64,000 nt of DNA from sequence record OR228459.1; one strand, given 5' to 3'. The DNA is from Klebsiella phage fENko-Kae01. Shown here piece after piece: positions 26,041-64,000 of the stretch; within the stretch, counting starts at the first letter, position 1; every line of letters begins with the position of its first letter. The notes beneath the pieces are model-generated. The model was given only the letters and a program-made list of their open reading frames with translations, was not told where the DNA came from and searched no databases. The position numbers were made by a program, and so were the translations under genes.

Positions 26041-26078
26041 AAAGGGTTGACGAGAGTCAGCCCTTTTTCGTATAATAA
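26041..26078 (+). promoter_or_regulatory. GNRA-type hairpin terminator/promoter element (AAAGGGTTGAC-GAGA-GTCAGCCC-T5 ... TATAAT)
   Basis: Same stem as UUCG family with different tetraloop. Confidence 0.6.
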
Positions 26079-27074: not shown

Positions 27075-27108
27075 TTGACACGATCAGGGAGTATGTTATA
27101 ATACTCCC
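27075..27108 (+). promoter_or_regulatory. promoter TTGACA-N16-TGTTATAAT with -10 in loop of GGGAGTAT/ATACTCCC hairpin
   Basis: Near-identical copy at 28381. Confidence 0.6.
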
Positions 27109-27131
27109 ATAGAAAATAAAGAGGACATATC

Positions 27132-28127: not shown

Positions 28128-28384
28128 AGTACATAATGATTGTACTGGCTATGCTTTTCCTAAGTGCATGTGATGATGAACCAGTGATCGATGCCAAGTA
28201 TTTGGCTATGCATGAGTGCGTCTACACTGGTAAATCATTTCAAACTGATGAAAAGACGTGGATTTCTAACGGGCGTGGTGGTTCATGGAAAGATGTAACT
28301 AATCGTTACTATGTCTATGATTGTCCACCGGGAAAGCAAAAAACTTTATCAACTGTTAGGCTTGTTATTGATACTGAGCATTGA
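28112..28384 (+). CDS. putative lipoprotein
   Basis: Signal peptide with lipobox LSAC (MKYIMIVLAMLFLSACDD). Confidence 0.55.
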   Translation: MDASMKYIMIVLAMLFLSACDDEPVIDAKYLAMHECVYTGKSFQTDEKTWISNGRGGSWKDVTNRYYVYDCPPGKQKTLSTVRLVIDTEH

Positions 28385-28414
28385 CAACATTCGGGAGTAT
28401 GTTATAATACTCCC
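28381..28414 (+). promoter_or_regulatory. promoter TTGACA-N16-TGTTATAAT with -10 in hairpin loop (copy 2)
   Basis: GGGAGTATGTTATAATACTCCC identical to the 27087 copy. Confidence 0.6.
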
Positions 28415-28437
28415 ATATTAAGAAAACAGGAGCTACA

Positions 28438-52728: not shown

Positions 52729-53064
52729 ACACGGCATGGAAGATGTGGTGAGTTATCATCCTGACTTCTGTCTTGTTTATGAAAATAGATTGAAACAGTA
52801 CTAACACGTTTATAACAACGTAACAGTACTGATATGAAGTGAAAAGTATTACCCACCAGCTTAAGCTGGTGGATGTGGTTAGAATAATAAGAAGGGGAAT
52901 CCCCAATCATACGATGAACTATATTCAATTCTACCAGTACTGCGAATAGTTACTCCACAAGAATGAGAAGACTGTTGTAGTACTGAACTTTTTATGACGA
53001 GAAAATTTGAATAGATTTTGGGTGTACTTATCCTGTACTCTGGACGGATTAAGGGCGTGTTTGA

Positions 53065-53150
53065 TTCTCATTCGCATATAAGAATGATAAACTTTCTCAA
53101 CATGAGAATGGTTCTCAGTTGCAAATAAGAATAGTTCTCAAATGAGAATA
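53065..53150. promoter_or_regulatory. four operator-like TTCTCA...(G/A)AGAAT inverted-repeat sites at ~25-bp spacing
   Basis: TTCTCAacaTGAGAA and TTCTCAaaTGAGAA palindromes plus two longer-spacer versions. Confidence 0.5.
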
Positions 53151-53314
53151 ATAATGATTATCGTTTTCAGTACTAGACTAATTTTTCCATTGGCTAGCCT
53201 ACCGCGACGGAATATAATATTCCGGCAGTATCACGAATCAGCTTGTTTTAAATCTGCCGTTATTATCTCAATATCTGGGTAGAATGTCAAGCTAATATTT
53301 TAAAAAATAAATGC

Positions 53315-53343
53315 TTGACACGTTGGCAGTACTTTGCTATTAT
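53315..53343 (+). promoter_or_regulatory. promoter TTGACA-N17-TATTAT driving non-coding IR-element transcript
   Basis: Perfect -35; no protein-size ORF before next promoter. Confidence 0.6.
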
Positions 53344-53370
53344 ATACACATAGCAAGAACAATGCTCAAG

Positions 53371-53458
53371 CCCACAGGGTGCGGAGGTGTATTCGTTAAA
53401 AGCTAAATGCGAATGATTATCATTTCGCTCATATGATACATTTCCGCACCCTCTAGGG
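53371..53458 (+). ncRNA. IR-element (CCCACAGGGTGCGG ... AATGATTATCATT ... CCGCACCCTCTAGGG), putative structured sRNA
   Basis: Homologous copy in inverted orientation at 59647-59726; flanked by convergent promoters. Confidence 0.45.
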
Positions 53459-53485
53459 TCTCCGCTTTCTCGCGTCTATATAGTA

Positions 53486-53514
53486 ATTATACGGTAATGC
53501 GGTTTATGCGTCAA
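53486..53514 (-). promoter_or_regulatory. minus-strand promoter (AAAAGTACTTGACG-N17-TATAAT) converging on IR element
   Basis: Reverse complement of 53486-53526 gives consensus promoter. Confidence 0.55.
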
Positions 53515-53591: not shown

Positions 53592-53620
53592 TTGCATTCT
53601 AATTTAACCTATTGCATAAT
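53592..53620 (+). promoter_or_regulatory. early promoter AAAAAGTACTTGCAT-N17-CATAAT
   Basis: First of ~22 early promoters sharing AAAAGTACTTG(A/C)(C/A)(A/T) upstream box. Confidence 0.6.
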
Positions 53621-53664
53621 AGCTACATCGAAACGAGATACACAAACACATTAAGGAAAACGAT

Positions 53665-53898
53665 ATGATTCGCATTGTTCGCATTAATTACTCTACCGGT
53701 GAAGCTGATAAAGTAGCGGTTATTGTATCAGAAAAGAATGATGATCATCTACACAATACGCTGATGCGTTTTGTTAGTGCGGTTGACCGTTGGGCTAGTA
53801 TTGAGTACTTAGAAACGTTTAAAGTCCCTGCCGTCCAGCTTAACGGGCATGATATTAAAGCAATTTGGAATGCTGACGAAATGATCGCGAACATGTAA
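53665..53898 (+). CDS. hypothetical early protein
   Basis: 77 aa, TTAAGGAAAACGATATG leader. Confidence 0.55.
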   Translation: MIRIVRINYSTGEADKVAVIVSEKNDDHLHNTLMRFVSAVDRWASIEYLETFKVPAVQLNGHDIKAIWNADEMIANM

Positions 53899-53924
53899 TT
53901 ATTTCAAGTACTATCAAAATTTAC

Positions 53925-53952
53925 TTGACTTACTTTGATAGTACTTTATAAT
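53925..53952 (+). promoter_or_regulatory. early promoter, class B UTR (ACTTACATACAAACGAAGTACTATTAAGGAAA)
   Basis: TTGACT-N16-TATAAT. Confidence 0.6.
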
Positions 53953-53989
53953 ACTTACATACAAACGAAGTACTATTAAGGAAAGCATT

Positions 53990-54121
53990 ATGATCACTAT
54001 CGAGAAAATCCGTTTAGCAGTAGAAGAACTGATCGCGGCTGGCTGGATTGTCGCAGAAAGTGAAGAAGAAATTAACATTGTAGTAAATGGTATGTATTCA
54101 GTTATGACAAACGTGGAGTAA
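53990..54121 (+). CDS. small hypothetical early protein (43 aa)
   Basis: ATG after conserved TTAAGGAAAGCATT leader; below ORF-track cutoff. Confidence 0.4.
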   Translation: MITIEKIRLAVEELIAAGWIVAESEEEINIVVNGMYSVMTNVE

Positions 54122-54138
54122 GTTAGTATTAAAAGTAC

Positions 54139-54167
54139 TTGCATTTACTTAGCGAGTACTTTATAAT
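54139..54167 (+). promoter_or_regulatory. early promoter, class B UTR
   Basis: TTGCAT-N17-TATAAT. Confidence 0.6.
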
Positions 54168-54203
54168 ACTTACATACAAACGAAACACTATTAAGGAAAT
54201 ATC

Positions 54204-54821
54204 ATGGAAAACATTATCGACGTTATCAAGTCTGTTTCTTATGCTGATCTGAATGAAGCACAAAAAGAAAAAGCTATTGAGATCATGCGAGAGTTAGAGA
54301 ATCAAGAAATGACTCCGTTTTGGTCTGTAGATATTACTGATCAATGGAAAGAAACTTTAGACACTGAATACGGCATTACTGATGCAGTGATTTATTGGTC
54401 TGGTTTTTGTTCACAAGGTGACGGTGCATCGATTAGTACTGAATACTATATTGATATTGAGAAGTTTTTACGTAAATGTAAAGCGTGGTCAAAATTCCGT
54501 GTACTGCACAAAATTATTGACCGTGAAGAAATTCATGCTAAGATTGATCGTAGCTCAAGCCGTTACAATCATGAAAACACTGTAAGCGGTAGCGTAGAGC
54601 TTGATTATAACATTGATTGGACGGCGAAGCAGGAAAGCGAAGCTGAACGCTTAGAAGAATTTTTGACCGAAACTATTCGCGAACTTTCTTGTAAGCTGTA
54701 TAAAGAACTTGATAATGAGAATGATTATCAAAACAGCGATGATGCCCTTTGGTCTACCATTGAAGCAAATGAATATGATTTTGCTGTAAACTCAAACGGC
54801 GACGTTTTGCGTATCGCCTAA
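54204..54821 (+). CDS. acidic early protein
   Basis: 205 aa, very D/E-rich. Confidence 0.6.
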   Translation: MENIIDVIKSVSYADLNEAQKEKAIEIMRELENQEMTPFWSVDITDQWKETLDTEYGITDAVIYWSGFCSQGDGASISTEYYIDIEKFLRKCKAWSKFRVLHKIIDREEIHAKIDRSSSRYNHENTVSGSVELDYNIDWTAKQESEAERLEEFLTETIRELSCKLYKELDNENDYQNSDDALWSTIEANEYDFAVNSNGDVLRIA

Positions 54822-54837
54822 AGTACTGACATACTGT

Positions 54838-54869
54838 AAAACGCTCTATAACGCATTGTAGGGCGTTTT
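54838..54869 (+). terminator. rho-independent terminator
   Basis: AAAACGC...GGGCGTTTT. Confidence 0.5.
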
Positions 54870-54926
54870 AAGGAATAGCAGTATCATTTATCATCTTAAT
54901 TAATTAAACGGCGTAGACGGCGATTT

Positions 54927-55097
54927 ATGAGCAAACAAGATATATTGAAAGGGGATGTTTTATACTGGTTAGATCCTGATGATGGGATCTGTTCTGGATG
55001 GGTAACAGTATTAGACGTTAATACTACAGTACTGGTAAAAGGTGCAACGGCAGAATTTGAAGTGCTACCCGAAGAACTTTATTCGCATGAAGTTTAA
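54927..55097 (+). CDS. small hypothetical protein (56 aa)
   Basis: ATG ORF between terminator and next promoter; weak RBS. Confidence 0.4.
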   Translation: MSKQDILKGDVLYWLDPDDGICSGWVTVLDVNTTVLVKGATAEFEVLPEELYSHEV

Positions 55098-55104
55098 AAA
55101 GTAC

Positions 55105-55162
55105 TTGCAAAGTAAATCTAAAAGCGTATAATGATTTGCATAGGGGGAAACATCTTCCCCCC
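55105..55162 (+). promoter_or_regulatory. early promoter + class A 5'UTR hairpin (GGGGGAA-ACATC-TTCCCCC)
   Basis: TTGCAA-N16-TATAAT; hairpin starts ~+10, followed by ACTATTAAGAGAAACGATT-ATG. Confidence 0.65.
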
Positions 55163-55181
55163 ACTATTAAGAGAAACGATT

Positions 55182-55622
55182 ATGACTATCTACTATCTGA
55201 CTTATAAAACCGCCGACAATGTAACTGATGCTAATGTGACCGCAAACACGGTACAGGAAGCAATGGAAGTACTGAAAGCGGAACTACCTGATATTCAGAT
55301 CGTTTGTGTAGTTGATACCGAAACGAATCTTAAAACTATTATTGACCACTATGATTATTTCCGTGGGCGTAAGTTACAGGACTGGTATCATATCGAAATA
55401 GAAACACGTGAACTACCAGAAGAACAACAGCACTTTGAGCAGGGTACTAGCATTTGGGTTACTACCGATAAACGCATATATTTCTGTTCACGCATACACG
55501 TTAACAAGCGTGTTAAAATTGGGGCAGATTCATATAGTGGACTGTTTACAAATAGTAACCTACTAAATGACAAGTACATAAAAGTTTATGAGCGTTTTGG
55601 AACTGATATTTACGCTTCATAA
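55182..55622 (+). CDS. hypothetical early protein
   Basis: Start set to ATG after class A leader (MTIYYLTYK...). Confidence 0.6.
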   Translation: MTIYYLTYKTADNVTDANVTANTVQEAMEVLKAELPDIQIVCVVDTETNLKTIIDHYDYFRGRKLQDWYHIEIETRELPEEQQHFEQGTSIWVTTDKRIYFCSRIHVNKRVKIGADSYSGLFTNSNLLNDKYIKVYERFGTDIYAS

Positions 55623-55630
55623 TATCACAA

Positions 55631-55660
55631 AGGGGAAGCAATTGCTTCCCTGTTTATTTG
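55631..55660. terminator. bidirectional terminator
   Basis: AGGGGAAGC-AATT-GCTTCCCCT + TTTATTT. Confidence 0.7.
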
Positions 55661-55703
55661 TACAGTACTATAATCTATAGATACAATACCGCACCCCGTG
55701 GGC

Positions 55704-55754
55704 TAATGTGTTTTCATGGGTATTATTATGCCAGTACTACAAACATTTGTCAAT
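55704..55754 (-). ncRNA. leaderless mini-ORF (MKTH*) small transcription unit with own promoter
   Basis: Minus strand: TTGACA-N18-ATAATA, TSS at ATG, ATGAAAACACATTAG, then CCCACGGGGTGCGG arm and the bidirectional terminator. Confidence 0.45.
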
Positions 55755-55931
55755 CATTATTTTCAATTAATTTAAACGCACTGTAACACTGTATAAGGCG
55801 TTTTGTTATTAAGGTAAGCAAACGTATTGAGTACTATCTAAAAGGCCGTTGTGGGCTTGCTGGTGGCGTTGTGTTGTAGTATTGAAATATAAGGAAAATA
55901 TAAAAAAGGCTGTCAATGATTAAAAAAGTAC

Positions 55932-55960
55932 TTGACGGATTGATTTAGTACTGTCATAAT
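55932..55960 (+). promoter_or_regulatory. early promoter without downstream ORF (possible sRNA promoter)
   Basis: AAAAAAGTACTTGACG-N17-CATAAT; next promoter 140 bp downstream. Confidence 0.5.
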
Positions 55961-56072
55961 GTATCACATAGAGCGGCGGGATGGATAAACATTCCTAAGT
56001 AGACAGCCAGTAAGTCATACGAAAGACTGGTGCCGAACTGAAAGAAAGATTGAAAAGAGTTTTAAAAAGTAC

Positions 56073-56101
56073 TTGACAAGCTGGTGGGAAATTGAGATAA
56101 T
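56073..56101 (+). promoter_or_regulatory. early promoter
   Basis: AAAAAGTACTTGACA-N17-GATAAT. Confidence 0.6.
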
Positions 56102-56151
56102 GACCCCGTAGACAGCAAACAACCTAATTAAACTTTAAGAGGAAATATACA

Positions 56152-56739
56152 ATGACTACTACTACTGAAAATGCACGTGTTACCCTGAAATCTGCACTGG
56201 AAGCTGGCGACGTTAAAACCCTTGCTGTTATCCTTGCGAAAGTTGGTCATGATAAAGACGGCGTATCTAAATTGGGCTTGACTTTCTCACTGGCGGTTAA
56301 GGAAGCGAAGGAAGTACTTAAAGAGCAAGCCAAAGCAGCAGAAGAAGCTGCACGTCAGGCAGCAGAACGCCGCGAAGCTAAAAAGGCTGCACGTCAAGCC
56401 GAAGAAGAAAAGCGTCAGGCTGAGATCAAGGCAGAAAAAGAAAATATGCTCAAGTTCCTCATGGATACGGTTAACGGTATGGGCTTAGACCTTGAGGCGG
56501 CAGAAGCGGCAGCAGAAGCGGCAATTGTTAAAAAGTACGGCGATGTTAACAAAGTACCTAAGTATACTTTTAACCGTGTAGCGGTGATTGTAGACGGTAA
56601 AGAATACAACATGCCAACTTCTGGGAACATGGTAGAAGTACTTAAAAATGCACTTGAAGCAAGCGGTAAATCGCGTAAAGAGTTTATCATCGAACACGCG
56701 AAAGACAAGGCAGAAGCGGAAGCGGCATTCGCTGAATAA
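56152..56739 (+). CDS. Ala/Glu/Lys-rich coiled-coil early protein
   Basis: 195 aa; AKAAEEAARQAAERREAKKAARQAEEEKRQAEIKAEKE. Confidence 0.6.
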   Translation: MTTTTENARVTLKSALEAGDVKTLAVILAKVGHDKDGVSKLGLTFSLAVKEAKEVLKEQAKAAEEAARQAAERREAKKAARQAEEEKRQAEIKAEKENMLKFLMDTVNGMGLDLEAAEAAAEAAIVKKYGDVNKVPKYTFNRVAVIVDGKEYNMPTSGNMVEVLKNALEASGKSRKEFIIEHAKDKAEAEAAFAE

Positions 56740-56757
56740 TAACAGTACTAAACTATA

Positions 56758-56784
56758 GGCGGCCTAAGTGGTCGCCTTTTTTTA
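56758..56784 (+). terminator. rho-independent terminator
   Basis: GGCGGCC-TAAGT-GGTCGCC + T7. Confidence 0.65.
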
Positions 56785-56797
56785 ATTGGGGGATTAT

Positions 56798-57058
56798 ATG
56801 GCTGTAGGATTCGCGAAAGACGGGGCAGAACAAGACGAGATTTTAGCGGTCATAAACGCCGCTGTAAGCCACGCAAGGAATCAGATAGGGGATAGTACTA
56901 TTACAAGTAGAACGCACTGCCTAGACTGTTCTAGGACTATTCCTGAGCGTAGACGGGAAGTAGTAAAGGGTGTTAAGTACTGCGTAGAGTGTCAGGCTGA
57001 TCATGATAGTATATTTAAAAGAGATCCGCGTAATTGTTGGCACAGATCTATGAGATAG
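56798..57058 (+). CDS. TraR/DksA-family C4 zinc-finger protein
   Basis: CLDCSRTIPERRREVVKGVKYCVECQ matches TraR/DksA C4 finger; start set at ATG after GGGGGA. Confidence 0.7.
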   Translation: MAVGFAKDGAEQDEILAVINAAVSHARNQIGDSTITSRTHCLDCSRTIPERRREVVKGVKYCVECQADHDSIFKRDPRNCWHRSMR

Positions 57059-57061
57059 TAC

Positions 57062-57118
57062 TTGACATACTTTCTGATTAAAGTATAATGATTTGCATAG
57101 AGGGAAACATCTTCCTTC
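57062..57118 (+). promoter_or_regulatory. early promoter + class A UTR hairpin (variant GAGGGAAACATCTTCCTTC)
   Basis: TTGACA-N16-TATAAT. Confidence 0.65.
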
Positions 57119-57139
57119 ACTAATTAAGGAAATAGAATC

Positions 57140-57412
57140 ATGCGTACACCAATGACCCGCGAAGAAATACACACAGTACTGACAACTAACATTCAGGACT
57201 GGAAGAAATACGCAGATATTAACGAAGCTCAAGACTTGAACAATGAGCTAGATGGTGAAGATCTGGACGTAATTTGTTCCCCTGAGTTTTATGATGATAT
57301 TCATTCCGATGATGATGTTTGGAATGTACTGGAAAAGCATTTCCTCGATACTGATTTAAGTATCTACTCGCGTGATACTTTTATTTTAATTCACAACATT
57401 TATAACAAATAA
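57140..57412 (+). CDS. acidic early protein
   Basis: 90 aa, D/E-rich. Confidence 0.55.
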   Translation: MRTPMTREEIHTVLTTNIQDWKKYADINEAQDLNNELDGEDLDVICSPEFYDDIHSDDDVWNVLEKHFLDTDLSIYSRDTFILIHNIYNK

Positions 57413-57415
57413 TTG

Positions 57416-57472
57416 TTGACTTACTTATATAGTACTGTATAATGGTTTGCATAGGGGGAAACATCTTCCCCC
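57416..57472 (+). promoter_or_regulatory. early promoter + class A UTR hairpin
   Basis: TTGACT-N16-TATAAT; GGGGGAAACATCTTCCCCC. Confidence 0.65.
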
Positions 57473-57491
57473 ATCAATTAAGGAAAAGAAA

Positions 57492-57701
57492 ATGACTCGA
57501 TACACTGTAGAAGTACGTACTACTAAAAACATTGCTACTGATGTGATTCGTTATTATAAGATGGTTTGTGGTGTTGCTCGCCGTATTAGTAAAGCGGATT
57601 ATGACAAGCTGGATCGCGAAGCTGATGGTATGGATTGTTTTTATACAGTAAACACAAAAACGCATACAAAGCAATTTAAAACATTGTCTTATTACATGTA
57701 A
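57492..57701 (+). CDS. hypothetical early protein
   Basis: ATG after AAGGAAAAGAAA leader. Confidence 0.55.
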   Translation: MTRYTVEVRTTKNIATDVIRYYKMVCGVARRISKADYDKLDREADGMDCFYTVNTKTHTKQFKTLSYYM

Positions 57702-57719
57702 AAAGTTTTACTCCAGTAC

Positions 57720-57748
57720 TTGACAATAGATGCGAGTACTGGCATAAT
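57720..57748 (+). promoter_or_regulatory. early promoter, class B UTR
   Basis: TTGACA-N17-CATAAT. Confidence 0.6.
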
Positions 57749-57784
57749 AACTTTATTGAAACGAAATACTATTAAGGAAATATC

Positions 57785-57832
57785 ATGGCTAATCTCATTG
57801 TTCGATTGTATGAAGATTGTTTCTACTTTTAG
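57785..57832 (+). CDS. 15-codon mini-ORF (MANLIVRLYEDCFYF) at consensus early start site
   Basis: Occupies position of a normal early gene start after ATTAAGGAAATATC; shares MAN start with gene at 58259. Confidence 0.3.
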   Translation: MANLIVRLYEDCFYF

Positions 57833-57862
57833 TATTGTGGGAAACCTATATCCGTTAAAGAG

Positions 57863-58174
57863 ATGATCGCATCGGGCTATATGTTATCTAAGCATGATCA
57901 CACTGGATTCATGGCTGAAATGGTTGCGGCTAGTTATAAGTTTGGTGAAGAATGGGAAGCACAATATTTTCCGGCTGTCAATGCAATGATTAAGCGGTTG
58001 GCAGAACACACTGAGTTTATGGAATTTTGGACTGTTTTAAAAATGGTTGACGTGAATCAGAATGGGGAAACGTGTCAGCCATACGCACATTTTGACGCTG
58101 GGGAAGATATTAGCACAATTTGGAAATGGTTGGAAGATAAATTTACAACAATTAAAATTGCAGATTACTTGTAA
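57863..58174 (+). CDS. hypothetical early protein
   Basis: 103 aa, AAAGAG RBS. Confidence 0.5.
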   Translation: MIASGYMLSKHDHTGFMAEMVAASYKFGEEWEAQYFPAVNAMIKRLAEHTEFMEFWTVLKMVDVNQNGETCQPYAHFDAGEDISTIWKWLEDKFTTIKIADYL

Positions 58175-58180
58175 AAGTAC

Positions 58181-58239
58181 TTGCATTACTATCTGAAAAG
58201 CGTATAATGGTTTGCATAGGGGGAAACATCTTCCCCCAC
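58181..58239 (+). promoter_or_regulatory. early promoter + class A UTR hairpin
   Basis: TTGCAT-N16-TATAAT; GGGGGAAACATCTTCCCCC. Confidence 0.65.
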
Positions 58240-58258
58240 TAACTAAGAGAAGAATATC

Positions 58259-58639
58259 ATGGCTAATCAAATCACTCCAGCACAGACCTTCAATAAATTC
58301 AGTACTGAAATCGTATTGAAAGAGTATGTGCCAGATTATGGTTGGACTGATGCATGTGTATGCACTGATGTAGCAGATGCAAAGCAACGCATTAAAGATT
58401 ATCGTGCGGAGGGTTTACAGGTTAAAACTGCCCGTCGCCGTGTACTTAACAAAGATGCTTTCTTATGTCAAGCTCTTTTAAACTTCTGCCGTGACTACTA
58501 TCGCCGTACTGGTGGATTATGGCCTAATGAGGTTGAAGTACTGAAATCTAACGGTAAAGTAAAATTTACCTTGACTTTAAAAGAAATTGAGGAAGTACTT
58601 GGTGATGATTGTTTTTTAGTAACTTCACAGCCAGCATAA
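58259..58639 (+). CDS. hypothetical early protein
   Basis: 126 aa. Confidence 0.6.
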   Translation: MANQITPAQTFNKFSTEIVLKEYVPDYGWTDACVCTDVADAKQRIKDYRAEGLQVKTARRRVLNKDAFLCQALLNFCRDYYRRTGGLWPNEVEVLKSNGKVKFTLTLKEIEEVLGDDCFLVTSQPA

Positions 58640-58647
58640 AAAAGTAC

Positions 58648-58681
58648 TTGACACATAACGGGGATATGATACAATATCCCC
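58648..58681 (+). promoter_or_regulatory. early promoter with -10 (TACAAT) in loop of GGGGATAT/ATATCCCC hairpin
   Basis: TTGACA-N16-TACAAT; 8-bp perfect stem. Confidence 0.55.
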
Positions 58682-58708
58682 ATATTGAAAAGTAATGGAA
58701 GTACTGAA

Positions 58709-58900
58709 ATGAATTATCAAAAGGTTAGCAAGCGAGTAGTTGAACTCTCTAAGAAAGCACGTAAAGAGTATACCTTAGAACGTTCAATTAACAACTATCA
58801 TTTAAAGCAAGGTGATAAGTTTATTGTTATTGACGAACCTTTGGAAATCGTGTATATTGTAGTTAATGCGATGATTCGTGATAAAACGAGGATTAAGTAA
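58709..58900 (+). CDS. hypothetical early protein
   Basis: Start set to ATG (MNYQKVSK...); ORF-track start is TTG. Confidence 0.5.
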   Translation: MNYQKVSKRVVELSKKARKEYTLERSINNYHLKQGDKFIVIDEPLEIVYIVVNAMIRDKTRIK

Positions 58901-59155
58901 ATGCGTACATTAGACCAACTTATTGACCCTAATACGTCAGCACGTCGATCAATGGTTACTATCGGCGGTAATGGTAAACAACACTGGAGTGGTTACATTT
59001 GCTTTATTGTTGGTGGAAAAATGTATGAGCGGGTAGTATATCACAAAGAGATTAATTATATACTATTCCGTAAAGAAGTCATAGCAGTCGATCCTACCGC
59101 CCTAAAACCGATTGCAGGGGCATGGAACAAAGAATCGCTGTACCTTACAGCTTAA
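58901..59155 (+). CDS. hypothetical protein
   Basis: TAAATG junction, 84 aa. Confidence 0.5.
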   Translation: MRTLDQLIDPNTSARRSMVTIGGNGKQHWSGYICFIVGGKMYERVVYHKEINYILFRKEVIAVDPTALKPIAGAWNKESLYLTA

Positions 59156-59204
59156 CCAATAAAAGGCCGCTACGTGCGGCCTATCGCGTTCTAGAGGGTA
59201 TATT

Positions 59205-59393
59205 ATGAATACTGTACAAGTACTAGATGAGATTGAAAAAATTGTTGACAGTACTAACAAACGTGATATACTGTTATCAAGAAATAAGGCTAACCAGTAC
59301 GAAAAGAATTGCGTACAATCTGCACTAGGGGGTAACTTTGAATCGCTACACTCAACCATACTTCAAGGGAATAACAACCGCCCACCAGCGTAA
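59205..59393 (+). CDS. hypothetical protein
   Basis: 62 aa, GAGGGTATATTATG RBS. Confidence 0.4.
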   Translation: MNTVQVLDEIEKIVDSTNKRDILLSRNKANQYEKNCVQSALGGNFESLHSTILQGNNNRPPA

Positions 59394-59595
59394 AAAGAAA
59401 CTACACATAGTACAGAAACGAAAGCGTAAAGTACTTAAACTTAAACCAACATATAGTTGGGGATTGTCGTGGGATGAAATCAATCACGGACTATCATGGA
59501 ATCAATTATATGTTATTGGCTCAAGTGTTGGACGCTTTCATTTTAGTACTATATCACGACAAGAAACACGTGTAAACCCATATAAAAGTACTTGA
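59338..59595 (+). CDS. very basic small protein, +1-frame overlap with upstream ORF
   Basis: 85 aa, K/R-rich; 56-nt overlap around CTAGGGGGTAAC. Confidence 0.3.
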   Translation: MNRYTQPYFKGITTAHQRKKKLHIVQKRKRKVLKLKPTYSWGLSWDEINHGLSWNQLYVIGSSVGRFHFSTISRQETRVNPYKST

Positions 59596-59633
59596 CATAT
59601 ATCCGGCTTAGTGAGATAATACTTACAAGCCGG
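59592..59633 (+). promoter_or_regulatory. early promoter with -10 (GATAAT) in loop of CCGGCTT/AAGCCGG hairpin
   Basis: TTGACA-N17-GATAAT; no ORF downstream. Confidence 0.55.
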
Positions 59634-59646
59634 AGAAACGGCGTGA

Positions 59647-59726
59647 CCCATAGGGTGCGAAGAAGTAATCAGTACTTGAGAATGATAATCATTTACAACA
59701 CTAGACAGATTTATGCACCCGATGGG
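59647..59726 (-). ncRNA. IR-element (minus orientation): CCCATCGGGTGCA ... AATGATTATCATT ... CGCACCCTATGGG
   Basis: Homolog of 53371-53458; downstream of leaderless mini-ORF on minus strand. Confidence 0.45.
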
Positions 59727-59776
59727 TTAGATTGTTTTCATGCATATATAATATCAAAGTACTGTTATAGTGTCAA
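59727..59776 (-). ncRNA. leaderless mini-ORF (MKTI*) unit with own promoter
   Basis: Minus strand TTGACA-N17-TATTAT, TSS at ATG, ATGAAAACAATCTAA. Confidence 0.45.
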
Positions 59777-59810
59777 GCATTTTTATTTGATAATTATTTT
59801 AAAAAAAGTC

Positions 59811-59838
59811 TTGCATTACTTTCTGAATAACGTATAAT
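59811..59838 (+). promoter_or_regulatory. early promoter, class B UTR
   Basis: TTGCAT-N16-TATAAT. Confidence 0.6.
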
Positions 59839-59869
59839 ACTTACATCAACCACTGAGAGGAAAGAAACA

Positions 59870-60241
59870 ATGTCTATTAAGCGTATTGTATTTGGTCGCG
59901 GTGCAAGTGAAGAAGTAGTACCTGTTGAACTGATCGCGATGTTAAATGAAATGATTCGCCGTGGTGATATTAATTTTAGTCCTGATGTAATGCCTTATGC
60001 GATTTCGTATGAGGTGCGTAAAAGTCCTAAGTACTGGAAGATTGACCGTGTAGAATTGGACAAAGAAACCGGAGAGATTCGCGAGTTTGGGCGTAGTTCT
60101 GTTGGTGCTGTAGATTTTGAAGGGAACGTGTTTAAATCTGCCAGCTATAAAGCCGTTGCTAAGGGTATCCGTGGAAACATCTTTGTTAACAATGGTTTTA
60201 GTGCAATTACTGGTGACGGATATATTCGTTATTTAAATTAA
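59870..60241 (+). CDS. hypothetical early protein
   Basis: 123 aa. Confidence 0.6.
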   Translation: MSIKRIVFGRGASEEVVPVELIAMLNEMIRRGDINFSPDVMPYAISYEVRKSPKYWKIDRVELDKETGEIREFGRSSVGAVDFEGNVFKSASYKAVAKGIRGNIFVNNGFSAITGDGYIRYLN

Positions 60242-60247
60242 AAAGTA

Positions 60248-60308
60248 CTTGCAAAGTAATCTGATTAGCGTATAATGTTTTACATAGAGAGGGGAAATAG
60301 TTTCCCCT
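60248..60308 (+). promoter_or_regulatory. early promoter + class A UTR hairpin (covariant GAGGGGAAA-TAG-TTTCCCCTC)
   Basis: TTGCAA-N16-TATAAT; compensatory base changes preserve stem. Confidence 0.65.
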
Positions 60309-60328
60309 CCATATTAAGGAAAAGTATC

Positions 60329-60565
60329 ATGGCACAGAAAATCACTCGCGATAACGTAGAATTTTACATTGATATCCTGAATACTAAACTTGAAAAGATG
60401 GGTGCTCCACTACGTTACAAAATGATCCCTGTTGCTGGTGGTTATGAGTTGCAAAAGTACAAGGGTGATATTCAGGTTGATTATTGTGTATCTGGTCAAA
60501 AACTCCGTGAAGTTTATGAGATTGTACGTTTTGCAGCTAACATGATTTCGGATAACGTGAAGTAA
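60329..60565 (+). CDS. hypothetical early protein
   Basis: Start set to ATG after leader (MAQKITRDNV...). Confidence 0.55.
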   Translation: MAQKITRDNVEFYIDILNTKLEKMGAPLRYKMIPVAGGYELQKYKGDIQVDYCVSGQKLREVYEIVRFAANMISDNVK

Positions 60566-60584
60566 TTATTATCAAAAAGTACTA

Positions 60585-60613
60585 TTGACAGAAACATGAT
60601 AGTACTTTATAAT
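60585..60613 (+). promoter_or_regulatory. early promoter, class B UTR
   Basis: TTGACA-N17-TATAAT. Confidence 0.6.
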
Positions 60614-60645
60614 ACTTACATCAATTAAGCAAAGAGGAAAACAAA

Positions 60646-60951
60646 ATGCAAATGTCTAACCTGTATGTAGCTCACATCACTATGCGTCATGGTGAATATG
60701 AAACACTGGTTAAACGTCTGATTATTGCTAAGAGTTTAGCAGAGGCAGAATTATACGCCTATGAAGAAGGGATGGCAACATTTGACGGTAGCGAATTAGA
60801 AGATAAATCCAGCTATCAAGAAGCGGATCAACCTCATACGTGGTATTTCTCAGGCGGGGATTGGTGCGTTACTCTTAATGCAGTTACATGGATTGAGGAT
60901 CGCGAAACAGCTAAAGTAATTGCTAAATCTGATTTACTGTCTTATCTGTAA
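60646..60951 (+). CDS. hypothetical early protein
   Basis: 101 aa. Confidence 0.55.
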   Translation: MQMSNLYVAHITMRHGEYETLVKRLIIAKSLAEAELYAYEEGMATFDGSELEDKSSYQEADQPHTWYFSGGDWCVTLNAVTWIEDRETAKVIAKSDLLSYL

Positions 60952-60957
60952 AAGTAC

Positions 60958-60990
60958 TTGACAACCTTTCGGGGGTAGGATATACTATCC
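60958..60990 (+). promoter_or_regulatory. early promoter with -10 (TATACT) inside GGATA/TATCC hairpin
   Basis: TTGACA-N17-TATACT. Confidence 0.55.
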
Positions 60991-61018
60991 CCATCAATTA
61001 AGCAAAGAGAGAAACAAA

Positions 61019-61429
61019 ATGTTTAAAATTACTAGCGTAGAAAAAAGCGGCGATTCCATGATTGTAAGTGCTTTCTGGAATGATGCTTGTCAAGTATCTA
61101 TTAGCTTTAATCAAATGGGCGTAGTACAATCCTGTACTTTCGCAGAGGATACCAAAGAGCGAGCACAATTAGAAGATCATGCACGTTCGGTAATTAAATT
61201 CAATATTCCTATTGAAATGGAACCTAATATCATTTATACTGATGATCAGGTCGAGCAAATGAAACGTTGGTATGAATCTTTGATTAAAGCGGAAAAGGTC
61301 ATTGCAGAAATGGATCAATGTATCGTTGAAGCTGATTGGTTATCTGATATGTTCGGGCAAACATCCGGTAGCATTATTGATGCCCTGTTTAATGTTCGTG
61401 CGGCGTTAGATCCTCGCATCAATCAATAA
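61019..61429 (+). CDS. hypothetical early protein
   Basis: 136 aa. Confidence 0.6.
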   Translation: MFKITSVEKSGDSMIVSAFWNDACQVSISFNQMGVVQSCTFAEDTKERAQLEDHARSVIKFNIPIEMEPNIIYTDDQVEQMKRWYESLIKAEKVIAEMDQCIVEADWLSDMFGQTSGSIIDALFNVRAALDPRINQ

Positions 61430-61432
61430 AGA

Positions 61433-61472
61433 AAAAAGGGGTTGACTTCGGTCGCCCCTTTTGTTATTATAT
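61433..61472 (+). promoter_or_regulatory. UUCG-hairpin terminator/promoter element (GGGGTTGAC-TTCG-GTCGCCCC, TATTAT)
   Basis: Only copy in the early region; stem has compensatory changes. Confidence 0.6.
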
Positions 61473-61548
61473 AGTCATTGGCAGATAAGCTACTAACCCA
61501 TAGGGTGCAATAGTCTGTCTGTAGTATTTTAGTACTGAAAAATAGTTC

Positions 61549-61576
61549 TTGCTTTTATGTGCTGGTGGTGTATAAT
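61549..61576 (+). promoter_or_regulatory. promoter with weak -35 (TTGCTT) and TATAAT
   Basis: UTR ACTTGTATTGAAAC... shared with promoter at 63471. Confidence 0.45.
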
Positions 61577-61606
61577 ACTTGTATTGAAACAAACGAGGGT
61601 TCAATT

Positions 61607-61768
61607 ATGGAACATGATTTTGATTCATCGGATTTTGAGTTGGCTAGTGATTATGCATGGCATCTTATGCAAAAAGAAGGTAAATCCGAAACTGATGCAT
61701 TAATGCAGGCGGCTAACCAATATAATATTAATTACGTATCATTACAAGGATATTGGGATCAAGCATAA
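61607..61768 (+). CDS. small hypothetical protein
   Basis: Start set to ATG after GAGGGTTCAATT. Confidence 0.5.
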   Translation: MEHDFDSSDFELASDYAWHLMQKEGKSETDALMQAANQYNINYVSLQGYWDQA

Positions 61769-61775
61769 AAAGTAC

Positions 61776-61832
61776 TTGCATTACATATTCAGTACTGTAT
61801 AATGGTTTGCATAGGGAAAAACAACTTCCCCC
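61776..61832 (+). promoter_or_regulatory. early promoter + class A UTR hairpin (variant GGGAAAAACAACTTCCC)
   Basis: TTGCAT-N16-TATAAT. Confidence 0.65.
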
Positions 61833-61852
61833 ACTAATTAAGGAAATGAATT

Positions 61853-62317
61853 ATGAATAGCATCCAGTTCGTAGAAGCCATTGAAAAAGAATTCCTGTCA
61901 GTATTTCCTAACGGTTTCTTTATTGCCCGACCTTTACCGTTGGGCGGTGATGTAGGGATCACTATGGGACTGACTCGCGAACAGGCCGATTGTCCTCATA
62001 ATATCCGTGATAATGATCGTATGCGTATGACCTTCGCGATCCACGGTATGAAGTTTGGGGATAGTGAAGATTATAACGACAAGTTAATTATGGAACCGTA
62101 CTATTCAGCGATTAGCACGATTCCACGCAAGCCATACTACGCTATGGGACACGATAAGATCAAGACACGCAAAACCACTAACACGCCGGAAAAATTGATT
62201 GTAACGCTTTCTAAGTACATTAAAACCGCAGGGCAGCAAGTAAAAGAGCTAGCAGAAGTAAACGAGATTTATCAGCAGGAACAGATTAAACCTCAGTACT
62301 TAGAAATTAACGTGTAA
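61853..62317 (+). CDS. hypothetical early protein
   Basis: 154 aa. Confidence 0.6.
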   Translation: MNSIQFVEAIEKEFLSVFPNGFFIARPLPLGGDVGITMGLTREQADCPHNIRDNDRMRMTFAIHGMKFGDSEDYNDKLIMEPYYSAISTIPRKPYYAMGHDKIKTRKTTNTPEKLIVTLSKYIKTAGQQVKELAEVNEIYQQEQIKPQYLEINV

Positions 62318-62333
62318 TTATTATCAAAAGTAC

Positions 62334-62362
62334 TTTACAAATACAGTAGAGTACTTTATAAT
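62334..62362 (+). promoter_or_regulatory. early promoter, class B UTR
   Basis: TTTACA-N17-TATAAT. Confidence 0.55.
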
Positions 62363-62394
62363 ACTTACATCAATTAAGCAAAGAGGGTTACAAA

Positions 62395-62619
62395 ATGGCG
62401 GCTAAAACTTTTGAACAGTTAAAATGGGTTGCTGGTCAAATCACTGATGATCTGATGTATTCCCGAATGAATGAAGCAGTACTAAAAACCGTTTTCAATC
62501 GCCGGACTAAATCTACTGAAATGGCTACCTTATGCGGCCTTGTATGTGCTAGTGCAATGGAACGTAAAATTAATACAGAAGTAATTGAGCGTTATTTACG
62601 CAACGTACATACTGAGTAA
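62395..62619 (+). CDS. hypothetical early protein
   Basis: 74 aa. Confidence 0.55.
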   Translation: MAAKTFEQLKWVAGQITDDLMYSRMNEAVLKTVFNRRTKSTEMATLCGLVCASAMERKINTEVIERYLRNVHTE

Positions 62620-62635
62620 TTATTATCAAAAGTAC

Positions 62636-62664
62636 TTTACAAATATAGTAGAGTACTTTATAAT
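62636..62664 (+). promoter_or_regulatory. early promoter, class B UTR
   Basis: TTTACA-N17-TATAAT; whole 62320-62395 block duplicated at 62620-62697. Confidence 0.55.
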
Positions 62665-62696
62665 ACTTACATCAATTAAGCAACGGGATTTATACT

Positions 62697-62927
62697 ATGG
62701 ATAATCGTGAAATCATTGCTCAAGTACTGACACGTATTTTAATGTCAACTCGACTTTCACAGGTACGCAACATCACAGCCGCACATGAAAATACATGGCG
62801 TGAAGCCTTAAATGGTAGTAATGCAAGTCAGCTAGCGGCGGATAATAAGCTGAAAGAAGTTATCAAGTCTGCTATGGCAGAATTGAATGATGATGCAGTA
62901 AATTATGTTTTAAATTCTTTCAAATAG
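62697..62927 (+). CDS. hypothetical early protein
   Basis: 76 aa. Confidence 0.55.
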   Translation: MDNREIIAQVLTRILMSTRLSQVRNITAAHENTWREALNGSNASQLAADNKLKEVIKSAMAELNDDAVNYVLNSFK

Positions 62928-62930
62928 TAA

Positions 62931-62987
62931 TTGCATTACTTCTGAAATAACGTATAATGGTTTGCATAGGGGGAAACAACTTCCCCC
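62931..62987 (+). promoter_or_regulatory. early promoter + class A UTR hairpin
   Basis: TTGCAT-N16-TATAAT; GGGGGAAACAACTTCCCCC. Confidence 0.65.
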
Positions 62988-63007
62988 ACTAATTAAGGAA
63001 ATATAAT

Positions 63008-63316
63008 ATGATTGCTAACGTTCAAGCCAACTTTGAAAACCAATTCATCAATGAAATATTGCGACTGGATGATGGGGTCGCACGTATTAACTACGGTTTT
63101 AACTCCGGTGGTTATGAAAGTAACGTGTACTTTTATACTGCTGACGGTGGTACACTGGCAATCGATACGGTAATTGTTGAAATACAAAAAGTAAACTTCA
63201 ATGATGAAAATGATCCACAGTGGTATATCATCGGCTATGACGTGAACTATGAAGATCAAGATCTTTATGACTCACATACAGGCCAGCAAATCATTCCCGC
63301 TTATGGGGATGAATAA
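63008..63316 (+). CDS. hypothetical early protein
   Basis: 102 aa. Confidence 0.55.
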   Translation: MIANVQANFENQFINEILRLDDGVARINYGFNSGGYESNVYFYTADGGTLAIDTVIVEIQKVNFNDENDPQWYIIGYDVNYEDQDLYDSHTGQQIIPAYGDE

Positions 63317-63323
63317 TAACACA

Positions 63324-63353
63324 AAGGGGAGCTAACACTCCCCTGTTTATTTG
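63324..63353. terminator. bidirectional terminator
   Basis: GGGGAG-CTAACA-CTCCCC + TGTTTATTT. Confidence 0.65.
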
Positions 63354-63395
63354 TACAGTACTAAATCATATAGATACAATTCCGCACCCTGTGGG

Positions 63396-63446
63396 TTAGA
63401 TTGTTTTCATGACAATAATTATACTTAAAATCGGGTGACGTGTCAA
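63396..63446 (-). ncRNA. leaderless mini-ORF (MKTI*) unit with own promoter
   Basis: Minus strand TTGACA-N17-TATAAT, ATGAAAACAATCTAA at TSS, CCCACAGGGTGCGG arm, ends at bidirectional terminator. Confidence 0.45.
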
Positions 63447-63470
63447 GCATTTATTTTATTAAAAACGTAC

Positions 63471-63498
63471 TTGCAATTTTTCAGTACTGTAGTATAAT
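63471..63498 (+). promoter_or_regulatory. early promoter
   Basis: TTGCAA-N16-TATAAT; back-to-back with minus promoter at 63441. Confidence 0.6.
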
Positions 63499-63531
63499 AC
63501 TTGTATTGAAACGAGATAAGGGAAACACAAA

Positions 63532-64000
63532 ATGATTACACAAATCTATCACGGCAGCACCCGTTTTGATACTGCTGGTGGATATAAAGGCGGCAAGCCT
63601 AACAGCTTTCAATATGGTGTAGGTCTGTATTGTACTAATGCTTACTTGTGGGCTGAGAAGTACGGTCGAAGTGTTTATGTATTAGATGTGGAACTCAAAC
63701 CAGAACACCACGCCGACAATGTAGAAATTACAATTGAAAACTTGCAATATTGGGTTAACTGCTATTGCTCGCAAAAAGTAGCAAAGATCTTTAAAAAGGA
63801 ATTCAGCCAGCGTAAAACTATGACTGCAAATCGCTTTGAATTGTGGTTGTACTGGAATGTAAGACGCTTTAAACCAATCGCCGTACAATTAGCTGCTTTC
63901 TTTGCTGCACAAGGTGTAACCCATAATAGCGAGGTTGGCAATTATGGTGGTAAACTCATTCGTATCTATGACTTTGATATTATCAAAGGTTACACAAAGG
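63532..64000 (+). CDS. YHGST-motif protein, partial (paralog of 3638-4330), runs off window
   Basis: MITQIYHGSTRFDTAGGYKGG...GVGLYCTNAYLWAEKYG; no stop before 64000. Confidence 0.6.
   Translation, partial: MITQIYHGSTRFDTAGGYKGGKPNSFQYGVGLYCTNAYLWAEKYGRSVYVLDVELKPEHHADNVEITIENLQYWVNCYCSQKVAKIFKKEFSQRKTMTANRFELWLYWNVRRFKPIAVQLAAFFAAQGVTHNSEVGNYGGKLIRIYDFDIIKGYTK

Follow-up and report, generated by a model that had tools for sequence, protein, structure and literature searches.

Promoter–leader modules with a conserved 5′ hairpin in the predicted early region of a Klebsiella jumbo phage and its relatives

Organization of the cassette region

We analyzed a 64,000-nucleotide (nt) stretch of the genome of Klebsiella phage fENko-Kae01 (OR228459.1), referred to here as the window, and in particular positions 53592–63498, where most of the small genes on the plus strand are headed by a promoter and leader of their own and where a subset of these leaders, termed class A, contains a hairpin near the predicted 5′ end of the transcript. 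This region showed 98% identity with the Salmonella jumbo phages SE_PL, 7t3, PHA46, and Munch (approximately 337–350 kb), which are relatives of the phages 121Q and RaK2, and matched Escherichia 121Q-like, Klebsiella RaK2-like, and Erwinia phages in patches. Munch is listed among the unclassified Caudoviricetes, and in its record the corresponding region lies at the start of the genome (1.2–21 kb) as a series of short hypothetical genes, for which only ribosome-binding sites and a few terminators are annotated and the leaders are left unannotated. Pfam and PHROG searches with the proteins encoded by the cassettes returned only families of unknown function; the product of the first class A cassette (ATG at 55182), a 146-amino-acid open reading frame (ORF), belongs to DUF7300.

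A regular-expression and consensus scan of positions 53592–63498 identified 23 sigma-70-like promoters on the plus strand, 20 of which were located directly before an ORF, 28–55 nt upstream of an ATG with a Shine–Dalgarno sequence (SD). The number of single-gene cassettes proposed in a previous reading made from the sequence only (approximately 22) was therefore about right. Of the roughly 25 small plus-strand genes at 53.6–64 kb, 20 had their own sigma-70 consensus promoter, and the approximately five without one were those at 54927, 56799 (a DksA/TraR-like zinc-finger gene), 58901, 59205, and 59338. The promoters were near-consensus (TTGACA/TTGCAT, a 16–17-nt spacer, and TATAAT), with an A/T-rich AAAAGTAC upstream, and their −35 boxes were mostly TTGCAT or TTGCAA, not TTGACA. 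When up to two mismatches were allowed, AAAAGTACTTGACA occurred 19 times in the window against 1.3 expected, with 12 of these matches at 53.5–62.7 kb. Seven class A and 13 other cassettes were thus packed into 10 kb, and most of them abutted the preceding stop codon with no other terminator in between.

The seven class A leaders shared the order TATAAT, GNTTTRCATA, hairpin, ACTAATTAAGGAAA, N5–7, and ATG, with 10–12 nt between TATAAT and a G/C-rich hairpin of 7–9 bp and a further 6–7 nt between the hairpin and the SD. A 26-nt core of this leader had six matches against zero expected, and a covariance model search of the whole window returned exactly the same seven copies. The first (55105–55184, plus strand; 68.3 bits) consists of a −35 box TTGCAA (55105–55110), a −10 box TATAAT (55127–55132), the hairpin GGGGGAA/TTCCCCC (55143–55161; predicted folding free energy [ΔG], −12.3 kcal/mol), the SD AAGAG, and the ATG at 55182. 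The second (57062–57142, plus strand; 72.7 bits; −35 box TTGACA, −10 box at 57084–57089, ATG at 57140) contains GAGGGAA/TTCCTTC at 57100–57118, which differs from the consensus stem by one A–U and one G·U pair (ΔG, −8.0 kcal/mol). The third (57416–57494, plus strand; 76.7 bits) has TTGACT as its −35 box, a −10 box at 57438–57443, a hairpin at 57454–57472, and an ATG at 57492, and the fourth (58181–58261, plus strand; 74.5 bits) has TTGCAT, a −10 box at 58203–58208, a hairpin at 58219–58237, and an ATG at 58259. In the fifth (60249–60331, plus strand; 45.4 bits; −10 box at 60271–60276, ATG at 60329), the hairpin is a 9-bp variant, GAGGGGAAA-tag-TTTCCCCTC, at 60289–60309 (ΔG, −14 kcal/mol). The sixth (61776–61855, plus strand; 69.6 bits; −10 box at 61798–61803, ATG at 61853) carries a degraded hairpin at 61814–61830, and the seventh (62931–63010, plus strand; 79.6 bits; −10 box at 62953–62958, ATG at 63008) a hairpin at 62969–62987. 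The predicted energies of the hairpins ranged from −8 to −14 kcal/mol, except for that of the 61814 copy (−5.4 kcal/mol), and the remainder of the leader was predicted to be unpaired.

Inside the window alone, the evidence for covariation is thin. The sequence-only reading had named two compensatory variants of the stem, of which only the one at 60289–60309 is genuine, and it is the sole true case among the seven copies, the stem at 57100–57118 contributing just one G·U pair. At 61814, where GGGAA/TTCCC had been taken for a second compensatory pair, the stem is instead damaged: GGGAAAA faces TTCCCCC with two A·C mismatches that arose from two uncompensated G-to-A changes, only GGGAA/TTCCC pairs (z-score, −0.08), and the stem of the orthologue in Munch is intact.

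Conservation of pairing across the phage family

The leaders of related phages were sought with the search anchored to their flanks and not to the stem. Leaders of the class A type were recovered from jumbo-phage contigs in IMG/VR and from Munch, 121Q (loci L051 and L081), RaK2 (L017), and Erwinia phage Hallingskeid. In a gapless alignment of the 24 leaders with a 7-bp stem, 98.8% of the cells were paired and both sides had changed in five of the seven pairs; none of 500 shuffles reached the observed values, and registers slid away from the true one scored far lower. A larger alignment was obtained by fitting leaders to a covariance model built from these 24 sequences, which gave 69 matches in 12 loci of the family and 67 distinct rows. 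In these 67 leaders, 98.2% of the pair cells were paired, cells with changes on both sides numbered 62 as against 13.7 in the shuffles, and the covariation score was 0.468 as against 0.244, a score that none of 500 shuffles reached; here, too, slid registers scored much lower. Because its rows are fitted to the model, this second alignment is biased toward the structure; the gapless one nevertheless agrees with it. The two took the place of a plain MAFFT alignment of the full set of 64 leaders, in which the 3′ arms fell out of register, and the matches to a broad pattern searched in viral contigs, TATAATGNTTTNCATAG, which were mostly due to chance, were excluded from the statistics.

Approximately 29 distinct stems were found across the family, some of which were unrelated in sequence and nevertheless occupied the same position. 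Such same-position stems of unrelated sequence occurred in RaK2 (GGAGATTCCA/TGGAATCTCC), 121Q, Hallingskeid, and other jumbo-phage contigs, including L114 (GGGTAAGC/GCTTACCC) and L133, and further examples were GGGGATACA/TGTATCCCT and GGTTAAGGAA/TTCTTAACC. One genome can hold several different stems. The hairpins of the family comprise GGGGGAA/TTCCCCC and its variants, with stems of 7–12 bp, loops of 3–6 nt that differ in sequence, and predicted energies of −8 to −17 kcal/mol. These results strongly support conservation of the hairpin structure through compensatory change. Selection on the RNA hairpin itself, as proposed in the sequence-only reading, finds strong support in these family-wide data rather than in the two examples on which that proposal was based.

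With regard to the strand, 12 G·U pairs were observed, with the G always in the 5′ arm of the sense strand, whereas A·C pairs numbered at most five and were mostly artefacts of stem extension. This excess of G·U over A·C lends modest support to folding of the sense strand. The purine-rich 5′ arm was rejected as an indicator of the strand, because the reverse complement of the hairpin is also purine-first. The z-scores of single-sequence folding, which are weak because dinucleotide shuffles preserve the runs of G and C, were likewise set aside as main evidence.

Position of the hairpin within the leader

Promoters were then picked across the family with the pattern GTAC-TTGNNN-N16–18-TATAAT, which is blind to the leader. 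The folding energies of the leaders behind the 119 distinct promoters were bimodal, with 52% at or below −8 kcal/mol, 42% above −4 kcal/mol, and few in between, whereas control segments 150 nt downstream were unimodal at around −5 kcal/mol. The first paired base lay 8–15 nt (mode, 11) after the −10 box, directly past a conserved CAT(A/C), a sequence that fits a start with a pyrimidine at −1 and a purine at +1, and the A of this CAT is the predicted transcription start. The predicted 5′ tail would then be 3–5 nt in length, with 3 nt in the Salmonella type, or 5–6 nt in the 121Q and RaK2 variants, where CATCAA or CATCAAA precedes the stem. The sequence-only reading had placed the hairpin approximately 10 nt from +1, and this distance shortens to approximately 3–5 nt from the predicted start. 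On the other side, the 3′ end of the stem was 3–9 nt from the SD and 14–22 nt from the ATG. The median leader length was 50 nt with a hairpin and 31 nt without one, indicating that the hairpin is an add-on of approximately 19 nt to an otherwise similar leader.

On the plus strand, G/C-rich hairpins with a purine-rich arm occurred in only three contexts: after the −10 box, in T-tailed terminators, and spanning the −10 box. Of the 69 promoter-linked hairpins of this kind, 67 lacked a T-rich tail. The class A hairpins are followed by ACUAAUUAAGG instead of a U-tract, were not called in a terminator scan, and sit within the leaders of conserved ORFs with good SDs, which argues against intrinsic terminators; the true T-tailed terminators are separate (55632, 56757, and 63325).

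Exchange of promoter–leader modules

The region was collinear with that of Munch except for four extra genes in Munch and one replaced gene, and all four indels and the replacement were bounded by promoter–leader modules. At every junction, the BLAST segments overlapped by 37–91 nt of promoter–leader sequence, which is duplicated in Munch, and the replacement began 7 nt past the ATG of the 57720 cassette and ended at the next promoter. The modules differed from those of Munch at 5.65% of positions, compared with 2.72% elsewhere (Fisher's P = 6e-9), and the differences per module were bimodal, at either 0–1 or 7–20, which suggests conversion or swapping. Among 21 clusters of orthologues, each present in at least three phages, 15 were mixed, with the leader forming a hairpin in some phages and being unstructured in others, and modules without a hairpin recombined too. 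The repeated modules would thus supply the homology for the gain, loss, replacement, and re-heading of cassettes.

Comparable units have been described in T4-type phages (RB49/phi1, PST/T4, and nt-1/KVP40), in which repeated combinations of an early promoter, a stem–loop, and an SD, known as promoter-early stem–loops (PeSLs), lie beside ORFans in hyperplastic regions and bring about modular shuffling (Arbiol 2010, PMC2839356; Comeau 2014, PMC4122927). The likeness extends to the unit length of approximately 100 bp, the A/T-rich upstream sequence, the near-consensus sigma-70 promoter, the stem–loop of a G-run and a C-run, the SD and start codon, and the clustering in plastic, ORFan-rich regions at the boundaries of indels and replacements between close relatives. 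The published stem–loops, however, lie upstream of the promoter, between the −35 and −10 boxes, or over the −10 box, and hence outside their own transcript, and are described as terminators or attenuators, whereas the class A stem–loop lies downstream of the −10 box in the transcribed leader, lacks a U-tract, and covaries throughout the family. Placement of the published type was seen in the cassettes at 58648 and 60958 only, and the hosts here are 121Q/RaK2-like jumbo phages, not phages of the Tequatrovirus type. In the Rak2-like phage CBB, the early/terminal-repeat region has been predicted to contain RpoD-like promoters with UP-like elements (PMC5259590). CBB belongs to the same phage group and has sigma-70 consensus promoters before short hypothetical ORFs, but only the promoters were described, and not a leader hairpin, leader classes, or module exchange; we likewise found no description of a leader hairpin or of transcription start sites in the literature on Rak2-like phages.

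Class A is best read as a variant of the T4-type PeSL cassette in which the stem–loop is situated in the transcribed leader, and the region as the early, hyperplastic part of a 121Q/RaK2-like jumbo phage genome, in which exchangeable regulatory modules each head one ORFan. The cassettes are probably expressed early. The whole promoter–leader unit behaves like a PeSL shuffling cassette, a point absent from the sequence-only reading, and the shuffling model is thereby extended beyond T4-type phages to a stem–loop selected at the level of RNA pairing.

Possible function of the hairpin

The modules follow one plan, with an A-tract containing AGTAC, then a sigma-70 consensus promoter, and finally a short leader with an SD, and each would drive a single ORFan. 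Between about one-third and one-half of them also contain a G/C-rich stem–loop of approximately 19–22 nt, placed 3–5 nt past the predicted start and 6–7 nt before the SD, so that host RNA polymerase would transcribe it as the 5′-terminal structure of an early mRNA. By analogy with the leaders of ompA, papA, and T7 phi10, we tentatively favor a role as a 5′ protective or insulating element, with a confidence that stays somewhat below even because the start site is predicted, some tails are 5–6 nt long, and the effect is deduced. Such a hairpin would presumably act without sequence specificity, hindering 5′-end-dependent attack by RppH and RNase E and scanning along the message, and would keep the context of the SD constant regardless of the cargo gene. 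5′-terminal stem–loops stabilize Escherichia coli mRNAs (Emory 1992, Bouvet & Belasco 1992, and Arnold 1998, as cited in PMC3997798). The ompA, papA, and T7 phi10 gene 10 leaders resemble class A in having a short, stable hairpin at or near the 5′ end, which for class A is predicted, with an unstructured A/U-rich stretch and then the SD behind it. In these leaders, the action depends on structure and not on sequence, with which the compensatory changes and the approximately 29 different stems agree. There, however, stabilization was demonstrated experimentally, while here the predicted tail of 3–6 nt is at or beyond the published limit and the hairpin belongs to a repeated mobile module on dozens of genes. 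The RNase III sites between the early genes of T7 are a second precedent, as repeated RNA structures that shape the stability of individual messages, but they are interrupted duplexes of approximately 20 bp that are cut in a polycistronic transcript, whereas the hairpins considered here, at 7–12 bp, fall below the length that RNase III requires, and every one of them stands behind a promoter of its own. Clear precedents exist for the module type as well as for the proposed mechanism.

Several observations weigh against a stabilizing role. Protection of 5′ ends by hairpins is reported to be limited to tails of 2–4 unpaired nucleotides, and the tails predicted for 121Q and RaK2 (5–6 nt) exceed this limit, so that simple occlusion of the 5′ end may fail there; a start at the sixth nucleotide after the −10 box would also give a tail of 5 nt. 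The z-scores of the single copies relative to dinucleotide shuffles are modest (−1.3 to −2.7), the window contains one copy, at 61814, that tolerates damage to its stem, and because leaders with and without a hairpin are freely swapped, the effect of the hairpin could be small.

A less probable explanation is that the hairpin sets translation initiation, either by insulating the ribosome-binding site or by damping or enhancing binding of the 30S subunit, with little effect on decay. The hairpin lies inside the 30S footprint, only 6–7 nt before the SD, its distances to the SD and the ATG are tightly kept, and the A/U-rich SD module that follows it is the same as that in unstructured leaders, in an otherwise unpaired leader. 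Its distance from the promoter is equally constrained, however, so the two anchors are not separated, and modules without a hairpin drive orthologues of the same genes. It is improbable that the hairpin is a recognition site for a specific factor, such as a RegA/RegB-like repressor or a nuclease that ends early expression, or an RNA that modifies RNA polymerase. Early genes need a later shut-off, the flanks GNTTTRCATA and ACTAATTAAGGAAA are highly conserved, and the 5′ arm is always purine-rich and starts with GGG or GAG, but the loops vary in both length and sequence, unrelated stems occur within one genome, the hairpin is not bound to particular genes, and a search of 52.5–64 kb with the Rfam covariance models (E ≤ 1) gave no relevant match. 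The variable loops, the several stems per genome, and the module swapping together make a sequence-specific operator or a gene-specific regulator less likely and favor a generic structural role.

About as little credit can be given to attenuation of the PeSL type, in which the hairpin would block or reduce read-through from upstream cassettes and leave each gene under its own promoter. In RB49, PeSL stem–loops of a G-run, loop, and C-run cut lacZ expression as a strong terminator does (PMC2839356), similar stem–loops lie over the −10 box at 58660–58681 and 60971–60992, and most cassettes follow the previous stop codon without another terminator. Nevertheless, an efficient terminator downstream of its own start would abort its own transcripts, and the class A hairpin is followed by ACUAAUUAAGG rather than a U-tract, with the terminator scan silent and the true terminators located elsewhere. 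Finally, although the modules coincide with the indel junctions relative to Munch, it is very improbable that the inverted repeat acts as DNA only, in recombination or template switching or as an operator, with the RNA hairpin as a by-product, since pairing is kept while the sequence changes, which argues against a sequence-specific operator, several stems per genome do not fit a single repressor, arms of 7–9 bp are too short for stable cruciforms, the asymmetry of G·U over A·C points to one strand, and hairpin-less modules recombine as well.

These phages of approximately 350 kb are candidates for therapy and contain hundreds of unexplored early ORFans. The two leader grammars, hairpin and unstructured, on swappable promoter modules can be used to annotate early transcription units and to correct start codons; they also provide insulated parts of natural origin for gene expression and a concrete way to test the influence of 5′ structure on the fate of phage mRNAs.

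Unstructured leaders and other cassettes

The unstructured leaders share motifs, as had been proposed for a single class B, but they form at least three related families: B (ACTTACATACAAACGAA..ACTATTAAGGAAA), C (ACTTACATCAATTAAGCAAAGAG), and D (ACTTGTATTGAAAC). Two pieces of these leaders, ACTATTAAGGAAA from the SD-proximal end of class B and ATCAATTAAG from the beginning of class C, reappear 3′ of the class A hairpin, indicating that the leaders are mosaics of sub-modules. All of the following cassettes are on the plus strand. Three class B cassettes occupy 53592–54206, with promoters at 53592, 53925, and 54139, ATGs at 53665, 53990, and 54204, and leaders with a ΔG of 0. A class B-like cassette at 57720–57787 (TTGACA..CATAAT) has only a 15-codon ORF after its ATG; in the adjoining segment (57785–58174), a 103-amino-acid ORF begins at 57863 and homology with Munch breaks at 57792, and the segment has the appearance of a scar left by recombination or of a gene that was replaced or disrupted not long ago. 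The cassette at 58648–58711 has an RB49-type stem–loop over its −10 box (GGGGATAT..ATATCCCC, 58660–58681), outside its own transcript, and is followed by an unstructured class C-like cassette at 59811–59872. Two class C cassettes occupy 60585–61021 (promoters at 60585 and 60958), the second with a stem–loop over the −10 box (60971–60992), and two more, with TTTACA as −35 boxes at 62334 and 62636, occupy 62334–62699. Class D is represented by the cassettes at 61549–61609, with the leader ACTTGTATTGAAAC, and at 63471–63534, the final one before the end of the window. Stem–loops that span the −10 box outside their own transcript (e.g., GGGAGTATgtTATAATACTCCC), like those of the RB49/phi1 PeSLs, were also found at 27075–27110 and 28381–28416.

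Co-located non-coding units and promoter-associated repeats

A second promoter-proximal repeat, without an ORF, was located at 53371, 59647, and 61497 on the plus strand and at 63395, 59726, 55702, and 53458 on the minus strand, and more than 60 further copies were found in related loci (L001–L006, L017, L081, L114, L126, L130, L133, L134, L137, L140, and L141). Each unit consists of a strong sigma-70 promoter followed 21–29 nt later by a small hairpin (P1), whose loop is G(N)GAAA or AGAUAA, then CUAA, an invariant ACCC-NNN(N)-GGGU hairpin, and GC(R)GAAAUGUAUCUAU. P1 covaries, with GC in 15 and CG in 14 copies at one pair and AU in 14, CG in 13, and GC in six at another. The minus-strand units end at bidirectional terminators shared with plus-strand cassettes (55632–55651 and 63325–63344), so RNAs of approximately 90 nt are predicted at 63322–63411 and 55630–55718 (minus strand). 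The unit, which had no match in Rfam, could be a family of phage small RNAs or a cis-acting leader RNA. Pairing between these units and class A leaders (RNAduplex) was rejected, as only trivial pairing of terminator stems and G/C arms was obtained. At 53316–53514 and 59592–59784, convergent pairs of units form long inverted repeats of approximately 110 nt (ΔG, −37 to −43 kcal/mol), which are centered on Fur-box-like sequences: GAGAATGATAATCATTTAC at 59678 (16 of 19 positions) and GCGAATGATTATCATTTCG near 53405. Repeats of the GAGAAT/GATAAT type also occur at 53060–53165, and a 17-of-19 match to the Fur box lies inside a gene at 54711. The Fur-box-like signal is weak, because the number of matches (at least 14 of 19 positions) was not above that in shuffled sequence.

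The most over-represented hexamer was AGTACT, with 222 occurrences in the whole window against 21.8 expected from base composition; the excess was 10–22-fold in every related locus and extended into coding sequence (2.7 per kb). In approximately half of the early promoters, AGTACT occupied two fixed positions at a distance of approximately 20 bp: one copy overlaps the −35 box at its initial T, and the other ends 1 nt before the −10 box. Because the palindrome is both genome-wide and phased at promoters, the AAAAGTACT box that the sequence-only reading had described upstream of the −35 box is merely one of its placements. AGTACT may be a binding site for some factor. A broader and rather improbable idea is that a defined subset of early mRNAs is marked as "self" throughout the family by the 5′ hairpin, for survival or later selective removal as the phage changes host RNA decay. 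Together with the covarying non-coding units (promoter, P1, and CUAA-CCC-NNN-GGGUGC) and the phased AGTACT sites beside the −35 and −10 boxes, it would make up a previously undescribed early-timing program of 121Q/RaK2-like phages based on RNA and DNA motifs.

Terminators and promoters were fused at 26047, 30490, 32241, and 61437–61470, where the −35 box TTGAC(G/T) lies inside a G/C-rich terminator stem (GGGTTGACgagaGTCAgCCC) that is followed by a T-run and then TATAAT, so that a single element serves as the end of one unit and the beginning of the following one. Over 61437–61478 (42 nt), identity with the Klebsiella RaK2-like phages was 97.6%. At 55932–56072, a promoter (TTGACG..CATAAT) and the one that comes next, at 56073, are separated by approximately 130 nt that contain no ORF, and this segment may specify a further non-coding transcript. 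The promoter pattern also caught a different phage group, represented by six IMG/VR contigs unrelated to this phage (L127, L129, L131, L135, L136, and L138), which contain arrays of AAAAGACTTGACA..TATAAT promoters, each followed by CGGCGC and short non-coding stretches, and thus a further architecture of repeated promoters.

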